Source: Escherichia coli (GTDB lineage Bacteria; Pseudomonadota; Gammaproteobacteria; Enterobacterales; Enterobacteriaceae). From it: a DNA stretch of 64,000 nucleotides. The translations under genes were made by a program, and so were the position numbers. Location: the NCBI RefSeq assembly GCF_024700885.2, contig NZ_CP117016.1, one strand, 5' to 3'. This document shows positions 56,540 through 56,908 of the stretch, one piece after another; position 1 is the first letter of the stretch, and every line of letters begins with the position of its first letter. The notes beneath the pieces were generated by a model. The model worked only from the letters and a program-made list of their open reading frames with translations. It ran no database searches and had not been told where the DNA came from.

Positions 56540-56908
56540 ATGTCGGACACACTCCCCGGAACAACGCTTCCCGACGACAACAAAGACCGCTCCTGGTGGG
56601 GGCTGCCCTGCACCGTGACGCCCTGTTTCGGCGCCCGTCTGGTGCAGGAGGGTAACCGGTTGCATTAACTTGCAGACCGCGCCGGTATCAGAGGCCGGTT
56701 CAGCGATGCGGATGCGAACCATCTGGACCAGGCCTTTCCGCTGCTGATGAAACAACTGGAACTCATGTTCACCAGCAGTGAACTGAATCCCCACCGTCAG
56801 AATACCGTCACGCTGTATGCTAAAGGGCTGACCTGCCATGCGGACACCCTCGGCAGCTGTGGTTACGTTTATCTTGCTGTTTATCCGACGCCCGAAACGA
56901 AACAGTAA
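56540..56908 (+). pseudogene. cbeA: cbeA (yeeU) antitoxin with in-frame premature TAA at codon 43
   Basis: MSDTLPGTTLPDDNKDRSWWGLPCTVTPCFGARLVQEGNRLH-stop; the same frame continues after the stop as [79 protein letters not shown]. Confidence 0.7.

Follow-up and report, generated by a model that had tools for sequence, protein, structure and literature searches.

A CbeA-family antitoxin pseudogene with an inherited stop codon beside an intact CbtA-family toxin gene in Escherichia coli MLI114

In Escherichia coli MLI114, a type IV toxin–antitoxin locus of the CbeA/CbtA family is in all likelihood a decaying module, in which an inherited, recombinant null allele of the antitoxin gene stands beside an intact toxin gene that the strain tolerates. 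The locus lies in a 64,000-nt stretch of DNA (hereafter, the window), which was identical to the MLI114 chromosome (NZ_CP117013.1, reverse strand; 0 mismatches over 19,461 bases). The strain, an ESBL producer, was isolated from stool in Mali, and its assembly was produced with Trycycler on ONT R9.4.1 reads followed by medaka and Polypolish polishing (PMC10198576). A large pheV-type island carries the module at its far end, adjoining the kps capsule genes. The same island encodes a T6SS, Ag43 and IS66, with the aai T6SS and pic located upstream of the window.

Interrupted antitoxin gene

The YeeU/CbeA-family type IV antitoxin pseudogene (56540..56908, plus strand) comprises 122 codons and contains an ochre stop at codon 43. 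Translated from the ATG at 56540 up to the TAA at 56666-56668, the frame reads MSDTLPGTTLPDDNKDRSWWGLPCTVTPCFGARLVQEGNRLH. These 42 residues (ending in …QEGNRLH) are followed, beyond the TAA, by 79 sense codons in the same frame, which lead to the normal stop at 56906-56908. A preliminary description of this DNA had reported the same truncation, and the RefSeq annotation agrees, with PGAP listing the gene (NL414_RS04445) as a ‘YeeU family antitoxin’ pseudogene with an ‘internal stop’. The description had also given TAC at this codon for K-12; our alignment recovered TAC at the corresponding position in K-12 cbeA and in ten other alleles.

When Tyr43 was restored, residues 19-117 of the translation matched CbeA_antitoxin (Pfam PF06154; E 6e-52), and the solved structure of YeeU (PDB 2H28) was a further match (E 1.5e-72). 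The gene thus has the domain of the family but no uninterrupted frame for the whole of it, and 24 of about 99 domain residues remain before the TAA. The pseudogene lies directly upstream of a CbtA-family toxin gene on the same strand, but the two do not form a functional type IV pair with both partners intact in cis, because the antitoxin is truncated. A search for an in-frame restart codon with a Shine-Dalgarno sequence after the TAA found none; the ATGs at 56747 and 56765 lack one, and a product begun at 56747 would miss the first 69 residues and with them more than half of the PF06154 domain. Judged by its reading frame, the antitoxin gene is a null allele. No second antitoxin copy was found within the window.

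Two further features of the gene are recorded here. A private C-to-T change at 56591 (plus strand), present in no other aligned allele, replaces Pro18 with Ser in the conserved DRPWWGL motif. The start codon at 56540 is ATG in the pheV/ST131-type antitoxin, and GTG in K-12 cbeA, the MLI114 leuX copy and seven alleles on viral contigs; the start codons compared include those at 3112 of locus L026 and 37286 of locus L007.

Module organisation and comparison with known systems

On the plus strand, the conserved upstream part of the module consists of DUF932 (53693-54511), an antirestriction gene (54566-55051), RadC/JAB (55067-55543) and DUF987 (55606-55827). These are followed by a second pseudogene (NL414_RS04450, 55846..56529), the antitoxin, the toxin, DUF5983 (57372-57860), DUF957 (57872-58069) and an interrupted DUF4942 gene. 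A terminator-like hairpin after the DUF957 gene (58109-58135, plus strand) was the only one detected in the scan, and promoter-like sites were no commoner than in shuffled sequence.

The upstream pseudogene contains an in-frame TGA (55987-55989), and PGAP annotates it as ‘antitoxin of toxin-antitoxin stability system’ with an internal stop. Its TGA allele was found in 38 complete genomes, including the ST131-type strain YDC107, and a version with one mismatch was found in about 359 genomes, where the annotation gives an intact protein, either hypothetical or DUF8835. As a candidate substitute antitoxin it was rejected, since the region 55846-56529 had no match in Pfam or NCBIfam and the gene is itself interrupted.

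Other genes of the island are also broken. The DUF4942 gene (58166-61144), intact in YDC107, is split by the IS21-family element ISEc10, whose istA (58671-60166) also bears a frameshift in the annotation. In the T6SS cluster, tssK is frameshifted (31066-32404, minus strand), and other frameshifted or partial island genes in 1-50000 comprise a zinc-ribbon protein, Hha and ImpA/VasL fragments. These frameshifts could reflect either real decay or leftover indel errors of the ONT-based assembly.

The CbeA/CbtA pair of K-12 CP4-44 belongs to the same Pfam families (PF06154 and PF06755), with 88.5% identity to the window antitoxin and 89.5% to the toxin. Gene order is also shared (RadC/JAB, DUF987, antitoxin, toxin, DUF5983/YeeW), and the 88-nt spacer between cbeA and cbtA in K-12 (PMC5371832) compares with 89 nt in the window. 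In contrast to the K-12 pair, the window antitoxin ends early at codon 43, GTG opens the toxin gene (ATG in K-12) and ATG the antitoxin gene (GTG in K-12). The window also has the additional 684-bp pseudogene between DUF987 and the antitoxin, and its locus lies at the end of the pheV-type island by kps rather than in CP4-44. The preliminary description had named the gene cbeA (yeeU); assignment to the CbeA family was borne out, whereas the gene proved to be a paralogue in a pheV-type island and not the cbeA locus of K-12 CP4-44. YkfI/YafW (CP4-6) and YpjF/YfjZ (CP4-57) are homologous type IV pairs, the antitoxins of which neutralise CbtA in trans (PMC5371832). They differ from the window pair in identity (59%–63%), in their shorter proteins (105–113 aa) and in their 20-nt spacer. 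By these identities, the window locus is a member of the CbeA/CbtA subfamily and stands much further from YafW/YkfI and YfjZ/YpjF.

Loss of one partner has been seen elsewhere in the family. YagB of K-12 CP4-6 is an orphan antitoxin of the same family (Wen 2017, PMC5371832). In a family sample from viral contigs (IMG/VR) of 12 loci, too few for statistics, two frameshifted toxins stood beside an intact antitoxin and three antitoxins were broken. The reverse of the present case was observed in two K-12-like modules (L015, 1958-2332; L017, 1309-1683), where CbtA is frameshifted at codon 74 by a 1-nt deletion and CbeA is intact. Broken copies of either partner are common in the CbeA/CbtA family.

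Distribution of the TAA allele

The spread of individual alleles was assessed with 55-nt probes carrying the variant base centrally, such that the 28-mer seed of megablast must include the variant. The TAA-centred 55-mer had a 100% match in 115 of 5,426 complete E. coli genomes (about 2%), at one place in each, and its carriers include the long-standing reference genomes IAI39 and CE10. In the shared allele, a linked synonymous GCA lies six bases beyond the TAA, and TAA alleles are about 99% identical to one another. A whole-gene BLAST search had suggested a private, de novo mutation, with a 100% match in MLI114 only and the next best matches (98.6%) in ST131-type strains such as YDC107, which carry TAC; the presence of the 55-mer in 115 genomes ruled this out. 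On this distribution, the stop codon is inherited and did not arise in MLI114.

The null allele occurs in two main contexts. In IAI39 (ECIAI39_RS22915) and strain 2/0, the antitoxin is likewise flagged with an internal stop and adjoins an intact cbtA (WP_000854824.1), and 28 genomes were at least 99% identical to the 851-bp IAI39-type module, which combines the null antitoxin with the intact toxin gene. The commonest context, found in about 81 genomes, is a TAA antitoxin fused to a dsdC junction with the toxin absent. In FDAARGOS_536, DA33135 and E138, the TAA pseudogene is the final island gene and abuts dsdC, the toxin and everything downstream being deleted; this dsdC-adjoining TAA pseudogene is recorded at loci L029, L030 and L032 (1885-2307). 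In strain H8, the TAA-carrying copy is toxin-less as well. The null allele is therefore already known, being present in reference genomes and flagged by the standard annotation pipeline.

Compared with these two contexts, the window retains the toxin that the dsdC-type orphans have lost from the same TAA allele. It shares the TAA codon, the linked GCA, the intact toxin and the PGAP flag with the IAI39-type modules (IAI39, 2/0, CE10 and about 25 others). However, the IAI39-type toxin WP_000854824.1 is only 88% identical to the window toxin and keeps its ATG start, and the IAI39-type module is without the extra upstream pseudogene found in the window. Although the sister isolate MLI121 differs from MLI114 by only 14 cgMLST alleles (PMC10198576), the complete-genome set contained no close relative of MLI114, and the next best match to a 24.5 kb island query had 97% identity at 85% coverage.

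Probable recombination patch

Sites at which the YDC107 (ST131-type) and IAI39-type alleles differ were tabulated against the window. The window was IAI39-type at three consecutive sites, namely 56632 (C), 56668 (A, the last base of the TAA) and 56674 (A). To the left of 56585 it agreed with YDC107 at 10 of 11 differing sites, with an isolated exception at 56576, and to the right of 56715 it did so at all 25. These boundaries define a minimal patch at 56632..56674 (plus strand) and a maximal one at 56585-56715, that is, 43–131 bp of IAI39-type sequence; outside it, the MLI114 gene follows the ST131/YDC107 type rather than the IAI39 type. Given that the TAA lies within a short patch inside an otherwise ST131-type gene, an exchange between paralogous modules, whether homologous recombination or gene conversion, most likely brought it into the MLI114 gene. 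The tabulated sites are compatible with either direction of exchange: a null allele may have moved in, or a null ancestor may have been repaired with ST131-type sequence. From 56675 to 56908, the sequence does not differ from that of the intact YDC107 allele and shows no further decay after the patch, which makes the event recent on the scale of the family.

Toxin gene and its start codon

The CbtA-family toxin gene (56998..57375, plus strand) is intact and encodes 125 aa. The preliminary description had called it full length, and this was upheld by a match to positions 1-112 of 112 of PF06755 (E 3e-62), so that an intact ORF holds the complete CbtA_toxin domain. The protein is identical to WP_016231184.1, whose partner in YDC107 is an intact antitoxin. 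It retains Phe65, which is conserved in CbtA, YkfI and YpjF as the determinant of FtsZ interaction (Heller 2017, PMC5624674). Residue 15 (57040-57042) is Cys, as in YkfI and YpjF, and Arg in K-12 CbtA. K-12 CbtA-R15C loses MreB binding and keeps its toxicity, and Cys15 is natural in the toxic homologues YkfI and YpjF (PMC5624674). Because R15C abolishes MreB binding in K-12 CbtA, one might speculate that the window toxin, with its Cys15, acts mainly through FtsZ. The expected mark of an active CbtA/YeeV toxin would be growth inhibition on expression, with lemon-shaped or filamentous cells. No sign of toxin inactivation was found in the sequence.

A feature that the preliminary description had missed is the toxin start codon, which is GTG at 56998 and ATG in every other allele examined. 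A GTG-centred 55-mer matched MLI114 only (one of 5,426 genomes), and the change is the sole difference from YDC107 between 56675 and 58575 (about 1.9 kb). The chance of one random substitution in that interval striking the three start-codon bases is about 0.002, a post hoc figure. A search of metagenome contigs gave no match to an exact 34-mer with the GTG start, which is uninformative as a search. The GTG start is known from a single ONT and Illumina hybrid assembly, and could thus be an error left in its consensus.

The A-to-G change also creates an overlapping GTG-TGA start-stop (GUGUGA motif; 56996..57001, plus strand). GUG and UUG have been found to initiate at 10%–100% of AUG (bioRxiv 10.1101/063800), and initiation at AUGUG and GUGUG sites is among the matters reported in a 2022 NAR article (PMC9841429). 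The 89-nt spacer between antitoxin and toxin (56909..56997, plus strand) contains AGGA at 56983-56986, which resembles a Shine-Dalgarno sequence, and is rich in C and poor in G, with a C/G ratio of 2.4 at 56900-56977. This composition was considered as a hint of Rho loading and dropped, because the spacer is untranslated in the wild type too.

Paralogous modules in MLI114

In MLI114, BLAST counted four places with YeeU-like sequence and five with CbtA-like sequence, of which the positions found were those in the window and in the leuX island. The paralogues were sought by a walk along the chromosome in 50-kb blocks, a check that the preliminary description had proposed and that yielded an intact pair in the leuX island: the antitoxin NL414_RS22900 (WP_001295723.1, 122 aa) and the toxin NL414_RS22895. 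The leuX antitoxin is 86.9% identical to the window antitoxin and 89.3% to K-12 CbeA. No YeeU module was present at selC, pheU, ssrA, aspV, thrW or glyU, or upstream of the window in MLI114. At thrW, the island (L013, 21152-23039) is a P4-like satellite with a retron St85 reverse transcriptase and effector, and this pair stands in place of a CP4-6-type YafW/YkfI module.

Probable tolerance of the toxin

How the strain lives with a toxin gene beside a null antitoxin can be considered in the light of K-12. Experiments in K-12 have established that the antitoxins promote FtsZ/MreB bundling without binding the toxin (cited in PMC5371832). As they act on the targets of the toxin and not on the toxin, any antitoxin of the family could protect in trans. 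Any one of CbeA, YafW and YfjZ suffices to neutralise all three K-12 toxins (Wen et al. 2017, PMC5371832), even though YafW and YfjZ are only 59%–65% identical to CbeA, and the action of YafW and YfjZ on CbtA provides a precedent for trans protection in MLI114. Moreover, the type IV antitoxin genes of K-12 can be deleted, which was ascribed to low toxin expression and a lack of autoregulation (Wen et al. 2017, PMC5371832).

In the sequence of events that we propose, the null TAA allele would have come into an ST131-type antitoxin by exchange between paralogous modules, and the leuX antitoxin, which is present in MLI114, may since have protected the cell in trans. Chromosomal toxins of the CbeA/CbtA family are in any case expressed at a low level. 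Output in MLI114 might be lowered further by the ATG-to-GTG change of the start codon, initiation at the toxin gene might be affected by the overlapping GTG-TGA start-stop, and the nonsense codons upstream (55987-55989 and 56666-56668) could cause Rho-dependent polarity. Considering these sequence features, toxin output in MLI114 is probably reduced by the start-codon change, the start-stop and polarity. On these grounds, the intact toxin beside the null antitoxin is probably tolerated.

The start-codon change may nevertheless be a matter of chance. The 28 IAI39-type genomes carry the null antitoxin and yet keep an ATG toxin start, and a weakened start codon is thus not needed for tolerance. 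Similarly, given that the K-12 antitoxin genes could be deleted (PMC5371832), no special rescue is strictly required. The preliminary description had held that the truncated antitoxin implies a toxin that is silenced, weakly expressed or neutralised in trans. The leuX paralogue and the GTG start support two of these three possibilities, but ‘implies’ was too strong a word.

Alternative explanations

A toxin that is dead or transcriptionally silent, and which would need no antitoxin and make the GTG start and the paralogue irrelevant, is an unlikely explanation, although it has low expression in common with the one that we prefer. The deletable antitoxin genes of K-12 and their attribution to low toxin expression (PMC5371832) would be consistent with it, as would the position of the toxin gene downstream of two nonsense-bearing genes and, for a dead protein, Cys15, given the loss of MreB binding in K-12 CbtA-R15C (PMC5624674). 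However, CbtA-R15C is still toxic and toxic homologues bear the same Cys15, while the full-length ORF, the complete PF06755 match and the conserved Phe65 all argue against a dead toxin, as does the identity of the protein to one that is paired with intact antitoxins in ST131-type YDC107. A further argument against this explanation is that each of the 28 genomes combining the null antitoxin with the toxin has at least one more module.

It appears rather improbable that the null antitoxin beside a live toxin has been kept by selection as a cross-island addiction network, in which the cell would rely on the antitoxins of other islands, here leuX, and these islands would thereby be stabilised. Read in this manner, the ATG-to-GTG change and the GUGUGA motif would be a compensatory adjustment of toxin dose. 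The further modules in 28 of 28 genomes and the sole substitution of a 1.9-kb interval at the toxin start would fit, but both facts are also expected from shared ancestry and chance.

That a working antitoxin is still produced, whether ribosomes read through the TAA or re-initiate to give a functional C-terminal fragment, is very improbable. In its favour, no TAA allele shows decay in the 79 codons beyond the stop, which stay near the consensus of the family, 28 genomes retain the allele next to an intact toxin, and the stop stands in a TAA-C context, which is a relatively weak one for termination. Nevertheless, both release factors recognise UAA, and the level of readthrough in E. coli normally remains far below 1%. 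A young allele would account just as well for the absence of decay, as the close identity among TAA alleles would indicate, and in about 81 carriers there is no toxin for an antitoxin to counter. As for re-initiation, neither of the downstream ATGs (56747 and 56765) has a Shine-Dalgarno sequence, and the fragment would lack over half of PF06154.

That sequencing or polishing introduced the TAA into the MLI114 assembly, the antitoxin really being intact, is scarcely credible: although the assembly is an ONT R9.4.1, medaka and Polypolish hybrid, the gene family is multi-copy so that short reads can mis-map, and several ‘frameshifted’ pseudogenes lie in the same island, the site is not a homopolymer, the exact 55-mer with the TAA and the linked GCA recurs in 114 other complete genomes including IAI39 and CE10, which excludes an assembly error, and the 55-mer occurs at only one place in MLI114, so the TAA was not copied from a paralogue in the same assembly.

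Implications

An inherited null antitoxin and a tolerated toxin in a decaying module thus remain the preferred reading of the locus. Two points are only mildly new, namely the recombination patch carrying the stop codon and the unique GTG toxin start, the latter from one assembly. Movement of a null codon as a short patch between paralogous island modules would represent gene conversion spreading a loss-of-function allele, and the GTG start, if real, would offer a natural test of toxin-dose adjustment after antitoxin loss. Neither the patch nor the GTG start changes the view of the CbeA/CbtA family, and the antitoxin gene is an ordinary, already annotated pseudogene. Loss of a type IV antitoxin with retention of the toxin recurs in natural E. 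coli, in 28 complete genomes and in MLI114, and this recurrence agrees with the K-12 work, in which the antitoxin genes were deletable and the antitoxins cross-protected.
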